64,000 nt of DNA, taken from assembly GCA_903872035.1 (NCBI GenBank), contig CAIQIZ010000029.1, forward strand, positions 479 through 64,478, read 5' to 3'. Below the pieces are notes generated by a model. That model did no database searches. It was not told where the DNA came from and saw nothing but the letters and a program-made list of their open reading frames with translations. Each line of letters opens with the position of its first letter. The stretch's first letter is position 1. Origin of the DNA: an uncultured bacterium. Lineage in GTDB: Bacteria; Patescibacteriota; Minisyncoccia; Phycocordibacterales; PALSA-1337. The translations under genes and the position numbers were made by a program. Shown here piece after piece: positions 9,161 through 37,449 of this stretch.

Positions 9161-9343
9161 AAAATAGAATTATTTCACTCGTGTGCACCCTGCAGGGCTC
9201 GGTCCCTACGGGACCGATACAGTCTTCGCATTTTCTCAGACTCGATATTCTCGTCCTCGAAAATATGCTCAGACTTTTCTCGCCCTTGACGCAAGTCGCA
9301 CATGCGACTTGCTCAGGGTGCACAAATTCGCTCTGCTCATTTG

Positions 9344-9417
9344 TGCACCCTGCAGGGCTCGAACCTGCGACCTCACCCGTGTGAAGGGTGCGCTCTAGCC
9401 AACTGAGCTAAGGGTGC
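9344..9417 (-). tRNA. tRNA-Val (anticodon CAC)
   Basis: Reverse complement folds as gcaccct-...-ttCACac-...-gcagg ttcgagc cctgc-agggtgc-a. No CCA encoded. Confidence 0.8.
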
Positions 9418-9462
9418 TCTTTACAAAAACGAAATCCGAATCTCGAAATACTAAACGATCGT

Positions 9463-9533
9463 TCGGGCTGCCGAGAATCGAACTCGGACCGCATCCACCC
9501 CATGGATGTATACTACCACTATACTACAGCCCG
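9463..9533 (-). tRNA. tRNA-Pro (anticodon GGG)
   Basis: Acceptor cgggctg/cagcccg, anticodon stem catcc/ggatg with loop atGGGgt, T-arm ccgag-ttcgatt-ctcgg. Confidence 0.75.
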
Positions 9534-9575
9534 CACTTACCATTTGAAACATACTACCACCATACTACAGCCCGG
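9534..9575 (-). repeat. Partial 5' copy of a tRNA-Pro-like gene abutting the intact tRNA-Pro(GGG)
   Basis: Minus-sense cgggctgtagtatggtggtagtat duplicates the first ~24 nt of the adjacent tRNA, then diverges. Confidence 0.6.
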
Positions 9576-9757
9576 TATCATCACCATCAAAGCGGCAGTT
9601 CGTATAGCTTACGATATTTTTGATAATTTCTCAATTTATGTTACCATTCTCACGTTACTGATTCGAGTTCGTATTTTTCGGGCCTAAACTAGCTTCGCTA
9701 AATTAGGCCCATCGCTCGAACGAAATGAATATGGTATATTCACTTCGCTTCTCGCTC

Positions 9758-9828
9758 GGGCCTATAGTAAAGCGGTATTACGCGTCCATGGCATGGACGA
9801 AGTCGGGGTCCGACTCCCCGTAGGTCCA
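9758..9828 (+). tRNA. tRNA-Ala (anticodon GGC), with an atypical T-loop UCCGACU
   Basis: G3:U70 alanine identity pair present. Anticodon loop atGGCat. C55 replaces the near-universal U55, so it may be a variant or a pseudogene. Confidence 0.6.
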
Positions 9829-9911
9829 CAAAAACAAGGAGCTCGCTTGCGAGCGACTATGTTTTTGTAGGATGTCGCCTGCAGGGCGGCGCCACATGCA
9901 GGAAGAATAGT

Positions 9912-9982
9912 CGGGGCGTAGTATAGTGGTAGTATACACGCTTCGGGTGCGTGAGGTCCGAGTTCGATTCTCGGCGCCCCGA
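9912..9982 (+). tRNA. tRNA-Pro (anticodon CGG)
   Basis: Acceptor cggggcg/cgccccg, anticodon loop ttCGGgt, T-arm ccgag-ttcgatt-ctcgg. Confidence 0.75.
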
Positions 9983-9988
9983 CAAGAT

Positions 9989-10059
9989 GGGCCTATAGTA
10001 AAGTGGTATTACGCGTCATTCGCATTGACGAAGCGGGAGTTCGATTCTCCCTAGGTCCA
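9989..10059 (+). tRNA. tRNA-Ala (anticodon CGC)
   Basis: Acceptor gggccta/taggtcc with G3:U70. Anticodon loop ttCGCat. T-loop ttcgatt. Confidence 0.75.
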
Positions 10060-10162
10060 CTGAAGATCTGCAGCCTTGTGCATAACTTCCCCGCTCACAA
10101 TTGACAATAATTTGCTATAATGGGGACGTCCATTTATTAATTATAAACATAATTTTAATATC

Positions 10163-10405
10163 ATGAAATCACTCCACGGAGTAGCATTTATTTTATTGAT
10201 TATCGGCGGTATCAATTGGCTTCTGGTTGGCCTTGGAATGTGGTTCGGCGGAAACTGGAATGTCGTCACTCTTATTCTCGGCGGTGTTCCATGGCTCGAA
10301 GCATTGGTTTATGTCCTGGTAGGCCTATCAGCCATCAAGCTTCTCATGTGTCACAAGAAGACTTGCAAGGAATGTGACAAGGGAGCCGCTCCGGCACAGA
10401 TGTAA
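10163..10405 (+). CDS. DUF378-family small membrane protein
   Basis: 'GGINWLLVGLGMWFGGNWNVVTLILGG' is the characteristic DUF378 double-transmembrane motif. A terminator follows. Confidence 0.65.
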   Translation: MKSLHGVAFILLIIGGINWLLVGLGMWFGGNWNVVTLILGGVPWLEALVYVLVGLSAIKLLMCHKKTCKECDKGAAPAQM

Positions 10406-10445
10406 TTCAGCAGAATTACCTACTGGGTAGTATTTGAAAAGTTTC

Positions 10446-10472
10446 GGATGAAAAAACCATCTCAAAACGAGG
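10446..10472 (+). terminator. Intrinsic terminator
   Basis: Hairpin accatctc-aaaac-gaggtggt followed by tttttt. Confidence 0.55.
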
Positions 10473-10533
10473 TGGTTTTTTCTATCAATGTACAACCATT
10501 CGTTTTTGGGTTATTATAGCCAAACCGTCAAAA

Positions 10534-10588
10534 GGGCCCGTAGCTCAATTGGTAGAGCGTCCCGATGCACATCGGGGAGGCAAGCGGT
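10534..10588 (+). pseudogene. 5' fragment of a tRNA-Ala-like gene, from the acceptor through the 5' strand of the T-stem
   Basis: The first 26 nt are identical to tRNA-Ala(UGC) at 10864. It has a different, irregular anticodon arm (tcccg-atgcacat-cgggg, an 8-nt loop). It shares aggcaagcggt, then runs straight into the GIY-YIG ORF. Confidence 0.6.
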
Positions 10589-10591
10589 ACT

Positions 10592-10855
10592 ATGTCTTTC
10601 GTATATATCTTACAGAGCAAAAAGACAGGCCGATACTACATAGGTAGCACAAATGATTTGTCGCGACGATTAGCGGAGCATAATTCAGACCAAACCAAAT
10701 CGCTCATCTACCAAAGGCCATTGGTTGTAGTATTCTCGAAAGAATACGGTAACTTGTCAGATGCGAGAAGGATAGAAAGGAAATTGAAGAAAATGAAAAG
10801 TCGGAGTATCATCGAGCACATAGTACACGACCAGGAGATCAAAGTTGTTTCATAA
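10592..10855 (+). CDS. Small stand-alone GIY-YIG nuclease (YazA/UPF0213-like)
   Basis: 'FVYILQSKKTGRYYIGSTNDLSRRLAEHN' is a textbook GIY-YIG motif. About 88 aa. Confidence 0.8.
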   Translation: MSFVYILQSKKTGRYYIGSTNDLSRRLAEHNSDQTKSLIYQRPLVVVFSKEYGNLSDARRIERKLKKMKSRSIIEHIVHDQEIKVVS

Positions 10856-10863
10856 CGTCATCA

Positions 10864-10939
10864 TGGGCCCGTAGCTCAATTGGTAGAGCGCCTCATTTGC
10901 AATGAGGAGGCAAGCGGTTCGAAACCGCTCGGGTCCACC
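10864..10939 (+). tRNA. tRNA-Ala (anticodon UGC), with CCA encoded
   Basis: Acceptor gggcccg/cgggtcc with G3:U70. Anticodon loop ttTGCaa. T-arm agcgg-ttcgaaa-ccgct. Confidence 0.85.
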
Positions 10940-11076
10940 ACTGGCAAAAATGCCGAGACTTGTTCTCGGTATTTTTGACAGTGAGGGGGCGGTCGGGAGT
11001 GGTTTCGAAGGACGGAGCGAGCGGAGGCGAGCGAGTCGGGGTCGCGGGCCGAGCCAGCAGGCGAGGACCCGTGACC

Positions 11077-28627: not shown

Positions 28628-30151
28628 ATGAAGACAAATTCATCGCTTACACAGATCGGATCATCTATCGCCAGATCACGTGAAGACCGCGGACTTACAC
28701 AGGCTGTTCTGGCCAAGAAGATAGGCACCACTCAGAGCGTCATCGCCCGCATAGAGAACGGCGAGCAGAACATCTCCACCAAGACCATGGCCAGGCTTAG
28801 CAAAGCTCTCGACCGGGAGATCATGAGCCTCTCCAAAGCGGGAACTATCAATTTCAAGATCGAAGGAGGACACGAGCTCAAGGGCCAGATCAAAGTCAGA
28901 GCCTCGAAGAACGGTGCCATCGGAGTCATGTGCGCTTCTCTTTTGAATAGCGGGGTGACAACCATAAAGAGTGCGCCACGGATCGAGGAGGTCTACAGAA
29001 TCATCGAGGTATTCAAGTCGATCGGTGTACGCACCGAATGGAAAGGTGGCGACTTGGTCATCAAACCGGCAGCCAAGCTGAATCTCAGCCGGGCTGAATA
29101 TTATTCGGCTCCTCATACTAGAGGCGACATCATGCTAATCGGACCATTGGTGCACAGGTTTAAGACTTTTAAGGTGAATCAACCCGATGGCTGCCGTCTG
29201 GGTTCTCGAACCGTCAAACCTTATTTCTATGCGCTGGAAAAGCTCGGCGTGACGATCGAAACGACATCGAAGCACTACGAGGTCCGCCATGACGGCTTGA
29301 AGAAGGATAAAGAGATAATCATGTATGAAGCCGGTGACACAGTCACTGAAACGGTCATCATGGCCGCTGCCCTAATCCCTGGTCAGACGACCATCAAATT
29401 CGCTTCAGCAAACTATCAAGTTCAGGATGTCTGTTTCTATCTAGAACAGCTCGGCCTAAAGATAGACGGGATCGGAACTTCCACTATGACGATCCACGGC
29501 CAGAGCAAAATAGACAAAGATATCGAATATCATCTAGGTGAAGATCCCATAGAAGCGATGTCTCTCATCGCCGCGGCCATCGTCACAAGATCCGGTATCA
29601 CTATAGAGCGATGTCCCATCGATTTTCTGGAATTGGAACTGCTGAAGCTTGAGAAGATGGGCTTCAAATACAAGATCGTGAAGAGATACAAAGGAGAAAA
29701 TGGCAGGGTAAATCTTGTCGACATCGAGACTTCCCCTTCAAAGCTGATAGCTCTGGCAGAAAAGATCCACGCTCTCCCCTATCCAGGCATAAATATGGAC
29801 AACCTCCCATTCTTTGCCTTGATCGGCGCCTTCGCTACTGGAGAGACTTTCATACATGATTGGGTCTATGAAGAACGCGCCATCTACTACAAGGAGCTAG
29901 ATAGGCTAGGTGTAGAATCCATTCTGGCTGACCCGCACCGCTTCTACGTGAAGGGCCCAGCTAAACTCAAGCCGGCAGAAGTCGTCTGCCCGCCAGCACT
30001 ACGTCCATCAGTCATCATCATGCTGGCTATGCTAGCCATCCCCGGGACTTCTATACTTCGGAACGTCTACAATATCAATCGCGGATATGAAGACCTGGCC
30101 GCTAGACTGAATAAACTCGGTGCAAGGATAGAGACTTTCCGAGATCTCTAA
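28628..30151 (+). CDS. murA: UDP-N-acetylglucosamine 1-carboxyvinyltransferase with an N-terminal XRE-family helix-turn-helix domain (fusion)
   Basis: Residues ~1-65 form a Cro/C1-type HTH (LTQAVLAKKIGTTQSVIARIENGEQNIS). The remaining ~430 aa align to MurA: ASKNGAIG, active-site loop 'QPDGCRLGSRTV' with Cys, and 'NINRGYEDLAARLNKLGARIE'. No stop codon separates the two parts. Confidence 0.8.
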   Translation: MKTNSSLTQIGSSIARSREDRGLTQAVLAKKIGTTQSVIARIENGEQNISTKTMARLSKALDREIMSLSKAGTINFKIEGGHELKGQIKVRASKNGAIGVMCASLLNSGVTTIKSAPRIEEVYRIIEVFKSIGVRTEWKGGDLVIKPAAKLNLSRAEYYSAPHTRGDIMLIGPLVHRFKTFKVNQPDGCRLGSRTVKPYFYALEKLGVTIETTSKHYEVRHDGLKKDKEIIMYEAGDTVTETVIMAAALIPGQTTIKFASANYQVQDVCFYLEQLGLKIDGIGTSTMTIHGQSKIDKDIEYHLGEDPIEAMSLIAAAIVTRSGITIERCPIDFLELELLKLEKMGFKYKIVKRYKGENGRVNLVDIETSPSKLIALAEKIHALPYPGINMDNLPFFALIGAFATGETFIHDWVYEERAIYYKELDRLGVESILADPHRFYVKGPAKLKPAEVVCPPALRPSVIIMLAMLAIPGTSILRNVYNINRGYEDLAARLNKLGARIETFRDL

Positions 30152-35914: not shown

Positions 35915-36145
35915 TCATAACATATGGTCTTTGTCCGCGACCTCAATGACTTTGGCCGGCATATGATGACCTTTAATTATTGTAACTCGCCGTTTAGGGA
36001 AAATGTTACGAAATATCTCAAGTAGGCGGCTGTTAGCGCGATTTTCTTCGGCCGGTTCCTTGACAGAAATGAGATATCTCGCCTCCGAGATCTTCTCGAT
36101 TTTCTCCTTTCTAGCGCCAGCAGTGACTTTGATGCCGATTAACAT
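35915..36145 (-). CDS. DUF167 (YggU-like) protein
   Basis: 76 aa. 'IKVTAGARKEKIEKI...RANSRLLEIF...RVTIIKG'. Confidence 0.7.
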   Translation of the reverse strand: MLIGIKVTAGARKEKIEKISEARYLISVKEPAEENRANSRLLEIFRNIFPKRRVTIIKGHHMPAKVIEVADKDHML

Positions 36146-36238
36146 TTTGATTTAGTATAGCCGATATGGTACATTTTCACATGTTCGTACGTTGAAAGCC
36201 AAATTCCGGTGTAGCTCAATGGTAGAGCAAGCGACTGT

Positions 36239-36792
36239 AGACGCATGATTTTTGATATACTTTTAAGTATGTCAGATATCAGGAAATATGCCGACCGAAG
36301 AGAAGCAATGATCAAAGCTGTTTCGAAACGTAGAAAGAAGATCAAAGCTCTCGCAATAGAATACAAAGGTGGGAAATACCAATTATGTGGTTATTCCCGC
36401 TATCAAGGCGCATTAGAATTGCATCATCGTGACCCAAAAGAAAAATCCTTTGGAATAGGAGAGAAAGGATATACTCGGTCATGGGATAGCGTTCGATGTG
36501 AATTGGATAAATGCATTCTCCTTTGTGCGAATTGTCACAGAGAAGTTGCGGCAGGCATACAGCAGCCTCCGAGAGAAATCTCGGTTGTAAACGAGGTGAA
36601 CTCGGGGAAACCCAACTAGAGCATTTCTAGGGGCAATCCCGAGCCAAGTCCGCGATCCGCGGAAAGGTGTAGAGACTATCCCTTTATGGGAGTACTCCGA
36701 CGTACGTCGGAGGAAGCGCCTCGTCCCTAAATCTGTCTTCGACAGACATGGGAATGATATAGTCCGCGCCACTAGTAACAGTGGATTACGCG
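36239..36792 (+). mobile_element. Group I intron (~554 nt) carrying an HNH homing endonuclease ORF
   Basis: The last exon nucleotide is U and the intron 3'-terminal nucleotide is G. Core elements are visible: R-like 'gagacta' and S element 'aatgatatagtccg' (P7 region). The ORF sits in the 5' peripheral region. Confidence 0.7.
36245..36619 (+). CDS. HNH homing endonuclease encoded in the intron
   Basis: 'CGYSRYQGALELHHRDPKEK...CILLCANCHREV' is an HNH zinc-finger nuclease motif. Alternative start at 36269 (MSDIRKY). Confidence 0.8.
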   Translation: MIFDILLSMSDIRKYADRREAMIKAVSKRRKKIKALAIEYKGGKYQLCGYSRYQGALELHHRDPKEKSFGIGEKGYTRSWDSVRCELDKCILLCANCHREVAAGIQQPPREISVVNEVNSGKPN

Positions 36793-36909
36793 TAATCGCT
36801 TGGTTGTAGGTTCGAGTCCTACCACCGGAGCAATTTTTTCCAGCATTATCTCCCGATGTTCTTTTTTGATACCCCAGACAGGGTTCAGAACTTTTGGTAT
36901 ACTTTGTAA

Positions 36910-37449
36910 ATGAAAACGCCAGCTACATACTTTATTACTGGCGTATCTGGAGTAGGAAAATCTACGACGATGATGAGTTTAAAGGAACTTCTTCCTTCTA
37001 ACGAATTCGATATTAGAGATTTTGATGAGCGAGGTGTACCTGATGGAGGTGGGGACGTATGGCACTCAAGAGAAACCAAATATTGGCTTGATATGGCTAT
37101 TATAAATACTCAAAGCGGTAGATCAACCATTATTTGCGGTTTCAATGAGCCCATAAGAATAAAGGCGGTTCAAACAGAAGAACACCCTTCTGTTACTCTT
37201 ATTCTTTTAAATGCTTCTCCCGAGACTATTCAAAAAAGACTTCACGGGAGATATCCTACCAAGGAAAGTGAACGAGAGATTGAAAGAGCTTCTGGTACTT
37301 CCCTGGAAAAGTTTATAGAGAACTGCACAACTTATCTTCCTGTTATGTACAAAAAGTTCAAGGAAGAAGGGTGTCCCATTATTGAAACTGACAACAAGAC
37401 TCCTGATGAAATTGCCGGAGAAATTATTAATTACGTAAACACAAATTGA
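36910..37449 (+). CDS. P-loop NTPase/kinase-like protein (Walker A GVSGVGKST), in the low-GC islet
   Basis: 'YFITGVSGVGKSTTMM' near the N-terminus. ~37% GC against ~48-50% for neighbouring core genes. Confidence 0.55.
   Translation: MKTPATYFITGVSGVGKSTTMMSLKELLPSNEFDIRDFDERGVPDGGGDVWHSRETKYWLDMAIINTQSGRSTIICGFNEPIRIKAVQTEEHPSVTLILLNASPETIQKRLHGRYPTKESEREIERASGTSLEKFIENCTTYLPVMYKKFKEEGCPIIETDNKTPDEIAGEIINYVNTN

Follow-up and report, generated by a model that had tools for sequence, protein, structure and literature searches.

A group I intron with an HNH-family gene at position 35/36 of a tRNA-Asn(GUU) gene in a Paceibacterota-like contig

The window, meaning the whole 64-kb stretch of DNA that was analysed, very probably holds a tRNA-Asn(GUU) gene split at 35/36 by a mobile group I intron of subgroup-IA type in a Patescibacteria (Paceibacterota-like) host. 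A sequence-only reading of this locus had taken a 35/36 insertion in tRNA-Asn to be undescribed, which is wrong, as 15 Patescibacteria tRNA-Asn(GUU) genes with group I introns at this site have been reported together with precise self-splicing in vitro and the blocking of exon ligation by an omega-G to C change (Nakagawa et al., mSystems 2026, PMC13011429; preprint July 2025, 10.1101/2025.07.03.662931). According to the same paper, the site was first reported with tFind (Williams 2020 preprint, 10.1101/2020.01.27.920355) as class 'Asn.4Ug'. The intron of the window is consequently a further example of a published type and not a discovery, and it adds little biologically. The additions made here are that the ORF-bearing form is very common, that a conserved -10-like box pairs with the start codon, and that the gene is free-standing at five loci. 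The host is placed by sequence similarity among Patescibacteria, as a Paceibacterota-like organism; every named UvrA relative at 80-86% identity belongs to Paceibacterota, Parcubacteria, Taylorbacteria or the 'Patescibacteria group', and the majority of those related loci for which a lineage is named bear the name of a Patescibacteria lineage.

Joining of the two exons (Table 1) gives a 72-nt cloverleaf with the anticodon loop CUGUUAA, which ARAGORN identified in the spliced sequence as tRNA-Asn(gtt), with anticodon GUU and discriminator G73, at the exon boundaries that the sequence-only reading had proposed. Run on the genomic sequence in its intron-aware mode, ARAGORN returned 'tRNA-Asn (gtt) i(35,554)', that is Asn(gtt) with an intron of 554 nt at 35. 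Comparison with 118 uninterrupted tRNA-Asn genes from metagenomes showed UCC...GGAG ends in common, including U1-A72, C2-G71, C3-G70 and G73, with an identity of up to 67/72. CCA is not encoded in the 3' exon, and a sigma-70 scan displayed no promoter 5' of the tRNA and no terminator 3' of it above chance. The statement that no second intact tRNA-Asn is present was likewise confirmed over the 64 kb with default ARAGORN; the conclusion attached to it, that splicing would be essential, goes further than a 64-kb part of a genome allows. The split gene was itself missed by default ARAGORN and by Rfam at gathering thresholds, and with these standard tools the genome would be scored as having no tRNA-Asn; missed intron-bearing tRNAs are a known pitfall in completeness estimates of CPR genomes (PMC13011429).

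Table 1. Features of the split tRNA-Asn locus, with positions in the window and the basis of each assignment
Feature	Position	Strand	Basis
tRNA-Asn(GUU) 5' exon, 34 nt, end ...CUGU (acceptor 5' strand, D arm, anticodon stem 5' strand, loop C32 U33 G34 U35)	36205..36238	+	ARAGORN, spliced and genomic sequence
P1 5' strand CUGU	36235..36238	+	CTGT before intron invariant in 73/73 loci; pairs with invariant GCAG
Group I intron, 554 nt, between tRNA positions 35 and 36	36239..36792	+	RF00028, covariation, insertion site of relatives
L1, loop of P1, 323 nt	36239..36561	+	Comparison with ORF-less introns L008, L041, L043, L072, L074
Predicted hairpin, -10 box (36251-36261) with start and second codon (36266-36276)	36251..36276	+	MFE, compensatory changes
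Extended -10-like box TGATATACT, 7 nt upstream of ATG 36269	36253..36261	+	Conservation in 64 ORF-bearing relatives
HNH-family ORF, putative homing endonuclease, 116 aa	36269..36619	+	phrog_2255, starts of homologues
Internal guide sequence / P1 3' strand GCAG, within ORF codons	36562..36565	+	Invariant in alignment
P2 (CCGAGA / UCUCGG), GAAA tetraloop	36569..36584	+	6/6 pairs changed on both sides, 99.4% of cells paired
P3 5' strand ACGAGGUG, pairs with 36717-36724 CGCCUCGU	36591..36598	+	3/8 pairs compensatory, 87% paired; RF00028 agrees
P4/P5/P5a region	36601..36643	+	Covariation; MFE fold of ORF-deleted intron
P4	36601-06/36638-43	+	4/6 pairs compensatory, 97% paired
P5	36611-13/36631-33	+	Compensatory changes; MFE fold
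P5a, holds ORF stop codon 36617-36619	36616-20/36626-30	+	MFE fold
P6 (UCCGCG / CGCGGA)	36649..36663	+	6/6 pairs compensatory, 94% paired
P7 5' strand GACUA, in 'R' element, pairs with 36760-36764	36674..36678	+	Invariant 57/57
P7.1	36679-82/36688-91	+	4/4 pairs compensatory
P7.2	36695-702/36705-12	+	8/8 pairs compensatory
P3 3' strand CGCCUCGU	36717..36724	+	Covariation alignment
P8 (36725-27/36750-52) and P8a (36732-36/36742-46)	36725..36752	+	8/8 pairs compensatory
P7 3' strand UAGUC, in 'S' element	36760..36764	+	Invariant 57/57
P9.0, pairs with the two bases before omega-G	36766-67 with 36790-91	+	100% paired
P9, loop AGUAAC, enclosed by P9.0	36769-73/36780-84	+	Alignment of relatives
Omega-G, final intron base	36792	+	G before TAA invariant in 73/73 loci; P9.0 covariation
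tRNA-Asn 3' exon, 38 nt, begins UAAUCGCU... (U36 A37 A38, anticodon stem 3' strand, variable loop, T arm, acceptor 3' strand, discriminator G73)	36793..36830	+	Sequence inspection, ARAGORN

On its comparative fold, the insert is a group I intron. All core helices are intact in the window, and a complete P1 to P9 fold could be built with P1, P2, the P3/P7 pseudoknot, the P4-P6 domain, P8, P9.0, P9 and P7.1/P7.2. In an alignment of 57 relatives, 52 of 66 pairs were changed on both sides and 89.8% of cells were paired (34-46% in slid controls), with a covariation score of 0.52 versus about 0.1 that was reached by none of 500 shuffles. Compensatory changes were found in P3, P4, P5, P6 and P8, while P7, which forms the pseudoknot with P3, is invariant and as such conserved yet uninformative for covariation. 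The minimum free energy fold of the ORF-deleted intron independently reproduced P2-P9 (z = -6.4). The R-like and S elements already pointed out from the letters are indeed present, 'GAGACTA' at 36672-36678 and 'AATGATATAGTCCG' at 36753-36766. The hairpins P7.1 and P7.2, located between P7 and P3' (36679..36712), are a hallmark of subgroup IA, to which 25 of 28 introns at 35/36 and nearly all Patescibacteria tRNA introns have been assigned (PMC13011429).

The Rfam group I model RF00028 matches 36499-36785 with 46.5 bits (E = 1.5e-10), under its gathering score of 50, and six close relatives score above it (58.7-68.9 bits); the sub-threshold value is a scoring shortfall and no feature is missing. 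The model puts P3, P4, P5, P6, P8 and P9 on the same bases as the comparative fold and has no choice but to put P1/P2 within the ORF, at 36499-36547, a placement rejected as wrong, the real 5' splice site lying 260 nt upstream. The group I introns of tRNA-Leu(UAA) in cyanobacteria and plastids and those of tRNA-fMet, tRNA-Ile (as in Azoarcus) and tRNA-Arg(CCU) belong to subgroup IC3, are without P7.1/P7.2 and mostly have no ORF. The P4-P6 and J6/7-P7 sequences of the Azoarcus intron are presumably very similar to those of the window (..CCGAGCCAAG...AAGGUGUAGAGACUA..). The common insertion sites are 33/34 in tRNA-fMet, 34/35 in tRNA-Leu and 36/37 in tRNA-Arg, not 35/36 (PMC13011429).

Both the fold and the two splice sites are established by comparative evidence. 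The insertion site is identical in all 73 related loci with both flanks readable, with an invariant CTGT/...G/TAA pattern. As initially read, the intron follows a U and ends in a G: U36238 forms the U.G wobble with the guide in P1 that marks the 5' splice site, and G36792 is the omega-G placed by P9.0. The 3' splice site is fixed at G36792 because P9.0 covaries, its two pairs exchanging AU 38 / GC 19 and UA 35 / CG 16 / UG 6 among the 57 sequences. The P1 strands of the window are separated by the 323 nt of L1, where the candidate expression signals and the larger part of the HNH ORF are located; in natural ORF-less relatives GCAG sits 7-9 nt past the 5' splice site. In 67 of 72 loci, the first base of the intron (+1) is paired with the base just upstream of GCAG (GC 50, AU 14, CG 3), the window being an exception with an A.A mismatch and a P1 of only 4 bp. 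No conserved P10 pairing of the 3' exon (UAA...) with the bases 5' of the guide was found, these bases varying as codons among relatives (TTAC, TAAC, TATT, TACA...).

Other candidates for the guide were tried and rejected. The P9 loop UAACAGU (36775-36781) perfectly complements the ligated loop ACUGU/UA, which suggested an unusual 3'-located guide, but in relatives this stretch forms a plain P9 stem closed by a loop of GNRA type (GUAA or GAAA), without conservation of the complementarity. An upstream GCAG (36551-36554), with CGCA/UGCG as P1 extension, was also discarded, since invariance and alignment with the guide of the ORF-less introns are confined to the GCAG at 36562-65.

The reading frame within the intron is intact, with no stop or frameshift. 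The longest ORF has 124 aa from ATG 36245, but the start shared with the homologues is the second ATG (36269), for a protein of 116 aa. Its last 58 nt (36562-36619) double as P1', P2 and the 5' strands of P3, P4 and P5. The product matches phrog_2255 'HNH endonuclease' (E 5e-25) and has 3233 homologous clusters. Pfam and NCBIfam gave no match at default cut-offs, the Pfam HNH family (PF01844) scoring 13.3 bits for a cut-off of 21.4, compared with 26.5 bits for a relative (P0008). A PDB profile search picked up McrA and an HNH domain from a group II intron maturase, both as weak matches. With an AlphaFold model of mean pLDDT 68, Foldseek matches were weak as well (best E 0.05, TM about 0.39) and comprised Cap5, Cas9 HNH, Gme HNH, GVE2 HNH and T4 endonuclease VII; the informative structure matches are all HNH nucleases, though weak. 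Of the HH motif, the CxxC...CxxC zinc site and the C-terminal His, residues H52-H53, C40, C86-x2-C89 and H90 are present, and the first of four zinc-ligand cysteines (at least 90% conserved) is Tyr37, as it is in the closest relative (P0002). The original description as a complete HNH endonuclease holds for the reading frame and needs qualifying at the first zinc ligand and at the Pfam threshold. Given the tyrosine and the sub-threshold Pfam score, the endonuclease of the window may be weakened or inactive.

The extended -10-like box upstream of the start codon may act as an internal promoter from which a leaderless endonuclease mRNA is transcribed. It pairs with AUUAUGNCA to form the hairpin of Table 1 (-12.1 kcal/mol in the window), in which all nine pairs form, one of them being a compensatory C-G. 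Among the relatives, the AUG is fully paired in 43 of 64; 75% of the hairpin cells are paired, sliding lowers this share to 29-51%, and TGA/TCA and TGG/CCA occur as compensatory alternatives. This hairpin would occlude the AUG in the read-through pre-tRNA. The pairing and its compensatory changes, the window's own C-G among them, are also what would be expected if TGnTATAAT were no promoter and served only as the 5' arm of a hairpin for translational control, the endonuclease being translated solely from the pre-tRNA or the excised intron. In the same direction, a simple promoter scan did not list the box, because the scan also demands a -35 hexamer. This alternative is nevertheless rather unlikely, albeit one of some weight: pairing alone would let the AAT part vary with its partner, yet TATAAT is complete (6/6) in 50 of the 64 ORF-bearing relatives and matched at 5/6 or more in 59. 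Moreover, TG is found at -15/-14 in 41 of the 64, the gap from box to ATG is held at 6-10 nt in 59, no Shine-Dalgarno-like sequence occurs between the box and the AUG, and similar boxes are also present on free-standing copies of the HNH gene.

A decaying element, with inefficient splicing or a dead endonuclease and its function taken over by another, intact tRNA-Asn gene of the genome, is a far less probable explanation. It would agree with the sub-threshold RF00028 score, the 4-bp P1 with its A.A mismatch, the change from Cys to Tyr shared with the closest relative, the small part of the genome visible (just 64 kb) and the existence of decayed copies such as L044, in which an orphan HNH gene accompanies a mutated guide and a truncated core. 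Against it, the core helices and the ORF of the window are all intact, the identical protein is found in the same gene context on 18 metagenome contigs, and interrupted and uninterrupted copies for the same anticodon rarely coexist in one genome (PMC13011429).

A tRNA-Thr gene with its intron at 33/34 (splicing after U36236 and G36790, loop CU-CGU-AA, Thr CGU) also satisfies a U before and a G at the end of the intron, and is called as Thr(tgt or cgt) with an intron at 33 or 34 by ARAGORN in 31 of 80 related loci, ARAGORN and tFind often making this call for relatives, but it was rejected as refuted for practical purposes: the partner of GCAG is CUGU with U35 at its end rather than GACU with U33 at its end, covariation of P9.0 in 57/57 sequences involves the two bases that precede G36792, the tRNA body has the U1-A72 and G73 of the 118 uninterrupted tRNA-Asn genes, all Thr-called loci have CTGT/...TG/TAA so that the call is a 2-nt shift artefact, and the artefact has been described in PMC13011429, where the sequenced spliced product confirmed 35/36.

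With the split tRNA-Asn gene as the preferred reading, transcription would yield a 626-nt precursor in which free guanosine would attack after U35; the omega-G, placed by the 2-bp P9.0, would then occupy the G site of P7, and ligation of the exons would give an ordinary 72-nt tRNA-Asn, CCA being added post-transcriptionally. Catalysis is predicted by analogy with an ORF-less relative, for which splicing in vitro has been published. The HNH protein would act in homing by cutting an intron-less tRNA-Asn near the insertion site, repair then copying the intron in. Its expression would be separated from splicing, the extended -10 box giving a leaderless mRNA, while in the read-through pre-tRNA the box would pair with the AUG and hide it, keeping ribosomes off the ribozyme; this scheme is proposed from sequence conservation only.

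At least 533 loci with this HNH gene family were found among species-representative genomes, and 80 of them were examined. The gene lies inside the same tRNA-Asn intron in 74 and is free-standing, directly beside a tRNA-Asn with an ORF-less 35/36 intron, in five others (L008, L041, L043, L072 and L074), tying the family to this site in 79 of the 80. It occurs with two different ribozyme cores, and intron-less tRNA-Asn genes, the putative homing targets, are abundant. Collaborative homing is exemplified by the psbA gene of cyanophages. The five loci resemble that situation, where a free-standing endonuclease gene lies beside an ORF-less intron (PMC2988022), unlike the window, in which the HNH gene is inside the intron.

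By comparison, four of the published tRNA-Asn 35/36 introns encode HNH endonucleases (PF01844), which makes 4 ORF-bearing cases in 95 complete genomes, as against the 533 or more loci with the gene family among species representatives; limited mobility was inferred there, and in the published view endonuclease genes are absent from most tRNA introns of Patescibacteria, which are therefore rarely mobile (PMC13011429). The occurrence of one HNH family at a single site in so many species-level genomes, the coexistence of stages (free gene beside an ORF-less intron, gene in L1, decayed remnants) and the association with two ribozyme cores suggest, as a tentative proposal held to be somewhat more doubtful than not, that the tRNA-Asn 35/36 intron is in an active homing cycle across Paceibacteria-like lineages. 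As a second part of this proposal, the ORF-bearing forms would have a T4-like control module made of a leaderless-type extended -10 promoter within an AUG-hiding hairpin; if true, no earlier arrangement of the kind has been described in a cellular tRNA gene. The frequency of the endonuclease-bearing form, the position of the gene in L1 with its overlap of the guide and P2-P5, the box within its hairpin and the free-standing copies may merit a short follow-up by intron specialists, and they bear on intron mobility and on how the splicing of an essential tRNA is shielded from translation of a passenger gene.

The published Patescibacteria introns and that of the window have in common the phylum, the tRNA, the insertion site, U(-1), omega-G and an IA-type core with P7.1/P7.2, some of the former also carrying an HNH gene, and both are missed by default tools or mis-called as Thr at 33/34 (PMC13011429). 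The sole member of the class tested in vitro is an ORF-less intron of 234 nt from Saccharimonadia, whereas the window intron has an ORF in L1; nothing essential differs. The T4 td intron with I-TevI, and likewise nrdB/I-TevIII and nrdD/I-TevII (reviewed in PMC2988022), has an ORF-proximal promoter in a hairpin that hides the translation start in read-through transcripts, and the candidate promoter of the window is placed in a like manner. In T4, however, the host genes are protein-coding and the ORFs are located in P6 or P9 loops, while the window has a tRNA host and the ORF in L1. I-TevI is a GIY-YIG enzyme and the ORF of the window is of the HNH family. The promoters in T4 belong to the late or middle class of the phage, compared with an extended -10-like box here, and the T4 ORFs use a Shine-Dalgarno site, whereas none is visible in the window, where the start looks leaderless.

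Joined together, positions 36205-36238 and 36793-36830 of the window formed a 72-nt cloverleaf (see table) that ARAGORN called tRNA-Asn(gtt), and in intron-aware mode the program returned 'tRNA-Asn (gtt) i(35,554)' for the genomic sequence, in agreement with the sequence-only reading of a tRNA-Asn(GUU) gene split in its anticodon loop. As that reading had also claimed, no second intact tRNA-Asn was found in the window, default ARAGORN giving seven other tRNAs and none for Asn; Rfam at gathering thresholds returned the same seven alone. Consequently, ordinary annotation would overlook this gene.

Elements of the split tRNA-Asn(GUU) locus and variant arrangements in related loci
Feature	Locus	Position	Sequence or remark
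Acceptor stem	spliced tRNA-Asn		UCCGGUG/CACCGGA
D arm	spliced tRNA-Asn		GCUC-AAUGGUA-GAGC
Anticodon arm	spliced tRNA-Asn		AGCGA-CUGUUAA-UCGCU
T arm	spliced tRNA-Asn		GUAGG-UUCGAGU-CCUAC
3' end	tRNA-Asn		discriminator G; CCA not encoded
P1	window		CUGU/GCAG; pairs C-G, U-A, G-C, U.G
Extended -10-like box	window	36253-36261	TGATATACT; 7 nt upstream of ATG 36269
Hairpin	window	36251-36276	box paired with start codon and second codon
Free-standing HNH gene	L008	1516-1850	directly upstream of tRNA-Asn
Free-standing HNH gene	L041	1492-1809	directly upstream of tRNA-Asn
Free-standing HNH gene	L043	about 1513-1822	directly upstream of tRNA-Asn
Free-standing HNH gene	L072	about 1518-1850	directly upstream of tRNA-Asn
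Free-standing HNH gene	L074	about 1507-1810	directly downstream of tRNA-Asn
Orphan HNH copy	L044	1501-2020	followed by decayed intron remnant
Introns without P7.1/P7.2	L012, L037, L041, L045, L046, L049, L050, L058, L060, L066, L072, L074, L077, L080 (also L020)

Relatives of the 554-nt insert were gathered via its ORF, which has 3233 homologous protein clusters at E <= 0.001, and one genome per species was scanned, giving at least 599 pattern matches of which the best 80 were fetched (loci L001-L080). In 73/73 loci with both flanks readable, tRNA-Asn(GUU) is interrupted at CTGT/...G/TAA (slashes marking the splice sites). Five loci carry ORF-less introns of 186-269 nt with the guide GCAG 7-9 nt past the 5' splice site, and GCAG is also invariant in the ORF-bearing introns (36562-36565 in the window); therefore, the ORF sits in the P1 loop. 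Intron base +1 pairs with the base preceding GCAG in 67 of 72 loci (G-C 50, A-U 14, C-G 3), the window being one of the five exceptions (A.A).

A permissive Rfam scan of 36100-36950 matched the group I model RF00028 at 36499-36785 (46.5 bits, E = 1.5e-10), below the gathering score of 50; close relatives reached 58.7-68.9 bits. This shortfall arises because the model puts P1 and P2 beside the core, the real 5' splice site being 323 nt upstream of the guide. Helices were located by comparison with relatives, those of the window being projected onto 57 cores of its type aligned with MAFFT. Standard pairs occupied 89.8% of cells versus 34-46% with 3' partners slid 1-3 columns, the covariation score was 0.52 versus 0.06-0.11 for slid versions, 52 of 66 pairs showed changes on both sides, and none of 500 shuffles attained the observed values. 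Compensatory changes were present in P2, P3, P4, P5, P6, P7.1, P7.2, P8 and P9.0, P7 being uninformative because it is invariant. Folding the intron by energy alone, with the ORF removed, gave the same helices (-103 kcal/mol, z = -6.4). The two-base P9.0, 36766-67 with the two bases preceding the terminal G, was paired in 57/57 cores, the pairs alternating between AU and GC and between UA and CG; G36792 is thereby established as the 3' splice site. The Rfam match, the two-sided changes and the P9.0 covariation thus bear out the proposed group I intron, and the pair of hairpins that lies between P7 and P3' is the hallmark of subgroup IA. In the P9 loop region (36769-36784), UAACAGU shows full complementarity to the anticodon loop after ligation (ACUGUUA), probably by chance since relatives do not keep it.

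A tRNA-Thr(CGU) spliced after U33 and G36790 would also obey the rule of a U before the intron and a G at its end in the window, but the pairing of the guide, the covariation of P9.0 and the body of the tRNA speak against this reading. The label 'Thr(tgt) i(33)' given by ARAGORN to many related loci is a two-base shift artefact, as the intron ends in TG there, and mis-calls of 35/36 introns as Thr or Ala at 33/34 by ARAGORN and tFind have been published (PMC13011429). The tRNA is Asn, not Thr. A scan of metagenome contigs for intron-free genes sharing the D arm, the T arm and CTGTTAA gave at least 120 hits, and among those listed the 118 complete genes all start with UCC, finish with GGAG and are at most 67/72 identical to the spliced product of the window.

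The observation and biological interpretation of the sequence-only reading were correct, whereas its claim that a tRNA-Asn insertion between positions 35 and 36 was undescribed was wrong. According to PMC13011429, the first report of this site came from tFind, as class 'Asn.4Ug'; the tFind preprint (Williams 2020) expanded intron-interrupted tRNA classes to 21 cases. In 95 complete Patescibacteria genomes, Nakagawa et al. (mSystems 2026, PMC13011429; preprint July 2025) found group I introns at 35/36 of 15 tRNA-Asn(GUU) and 3 tRNA-Asp genes, nearly all introns being of subgroup IA. Self-splicing in vitro was precise and blocked at exon ligation by omega-G to C (PMC13011429); the intron spliced was 234 nt long and hence ORF-less. 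The window intron is one more member of this published and experimentally tested class, to which abundance, expression signals, free-standing copies and two cores are incremental additions. Four of the published tRNA-Asn 35/36 introns encode HNH endonucleases (PF01844) and limited mobility was inferred, whereas here at least 533 confirmed loci encode the HNH family with one genome per species. Lineage names in the matches listed are mostly Patescibacteria (Paceibacterota, Parcubacteria, Taylorbacteria, Harrisonbacteria, Kaiserbacteria and others); a few bear other labels (e.g. Gammaproteobacteria, Simkania, Peribacteraceae) and many are uninformative.

The longest ORF (36245-36619) encodes 124 aa, but counted from the second Met (36269), where homologues start, the protein has 116 aa and is identical to cluster P0001. 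It matched phrog_2255 'HNH endonuclease' (PHROGs, E 5e-25), but no Pfam or NCBIfam model at default cut-offs (Pfam HNH 13.3 bits against a cut-off of 21.4; 26.5 bits for the relative P0008), and structures matched by its AlphaFold model (pLDDT 68) were all HNH nucleases, but weakly so. The HH motif, C40, C86-x2-C89 and H90 are present. Codon 37 (36377-36379), however, encodes Tyr in place of the leading Cys of the CxxC...CxxC zinc site, a residue kept in at least 90% of relatives though also Tyr in the closest one, P0002. Given Tyr37, the endonuclease may be weakened or heading to decay. The ORF's 3'-terminal 58 nt double as P1', P2 and the 5' strands of P3, P4 and P5, and the encoded C-terminus 'QLP...NEVNSGKP' is conserved because its codons belong to the ribozyme.

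Of 64 ORF-bearing introns, 50 have TATAAT at 6/6 positions and 59 at 5/6 or better in the non-coding part of the P1 loop immediately before the start codon, with TG at -15/-14 in 41/64 and 6-10 nt between box and ATG in 59/64, a layout that looks like an extended -10 promoter for a leaderless mRNA. Among the 57 loci in which the box is well defined, it pairs with AUU-AUG-NCA in 75% of cells versus 29-51% when slid, and exchanges are compensatory (TGA/TCA, TGG/CCA); the window forms 9/9 hairpin pairs, including C-G replacing the consensus A-U. These patterns suggest an internal promoter combined with masking of the start codon: the AUG would be concealed in read-through pre-tRNA and accessible in promoter-derived transcripts, and ribosomes would be kept off a ribozyme that shares part of its core with the ORF. 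The same logic of a start hidden in read-through RNA applies to the phage T4 td intron and I-TevI, where premature translation impairs splicing (PMC2988022). Neither the box nor the AUG-hiding hairpin is discussed in Nakagawa et al. (PMC13011429).

Within the best 80 loci, the gene lies in a complete tRNA-Asn intron in 68, while 6 more retain 5' exon and guide before a contig end; it is adjacent to the tRNA in 5 and orphan in 1. The tRNA-Asn beside each free-standing gene carries an ORF-less 35/36 intron (186-269 nt), and the free-standing copies are without the guide-encoding 'QLP' C-terminus. This arrangement resembles the proposed 'collaborative homing' (PMC2988022) and could represent such a stage. 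The orphan has no tRNA exon on either side, and its remnant shows the guide changed to GCAA, P2 and the 5' strand of P3 retained, and a truncated core. P7.1/P7.2 were absent from 14 of the 73 introns, as flagged by a sequence filter, and also from L020, which that filter had placed in the wrong group. The core of these introns is different and shorter (..GCGCCGUAGAGACUAGAUACCG..), site and HNH family being unchanged; the endonuclease gene thus seems to occur together with two kinds of ribozyme.

Regarding the host, named relatives of the window's UvrA at 80-86% identity are all Paceibacterota, Parcubacteria, Taylorbacteria, Pacebacteria or 'Patescibacteria group', and the intron locus itself, with an identical ORF protein and the same neighbours, occurs on 18 metagenome contigs. 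Elsewhere in the window, six tRNA genes (Val-CAC, Pro-GGG, Ala-GGC, Pro-CGG, Ala-CGC, Ala-UGC) occupy both strands of 9343-10940, with three tRNA-Ala isoacceptors inside 1.2 kb. The ORF at 28628-30151 (+) matches MurA over residues 75-504 and a HipB/Y4mF-type antitoxin HTH model (TIGR03070, E 3.7e-11) over residues 8-61, and is either a fusion or two neighbouring genes read as a single ORF.
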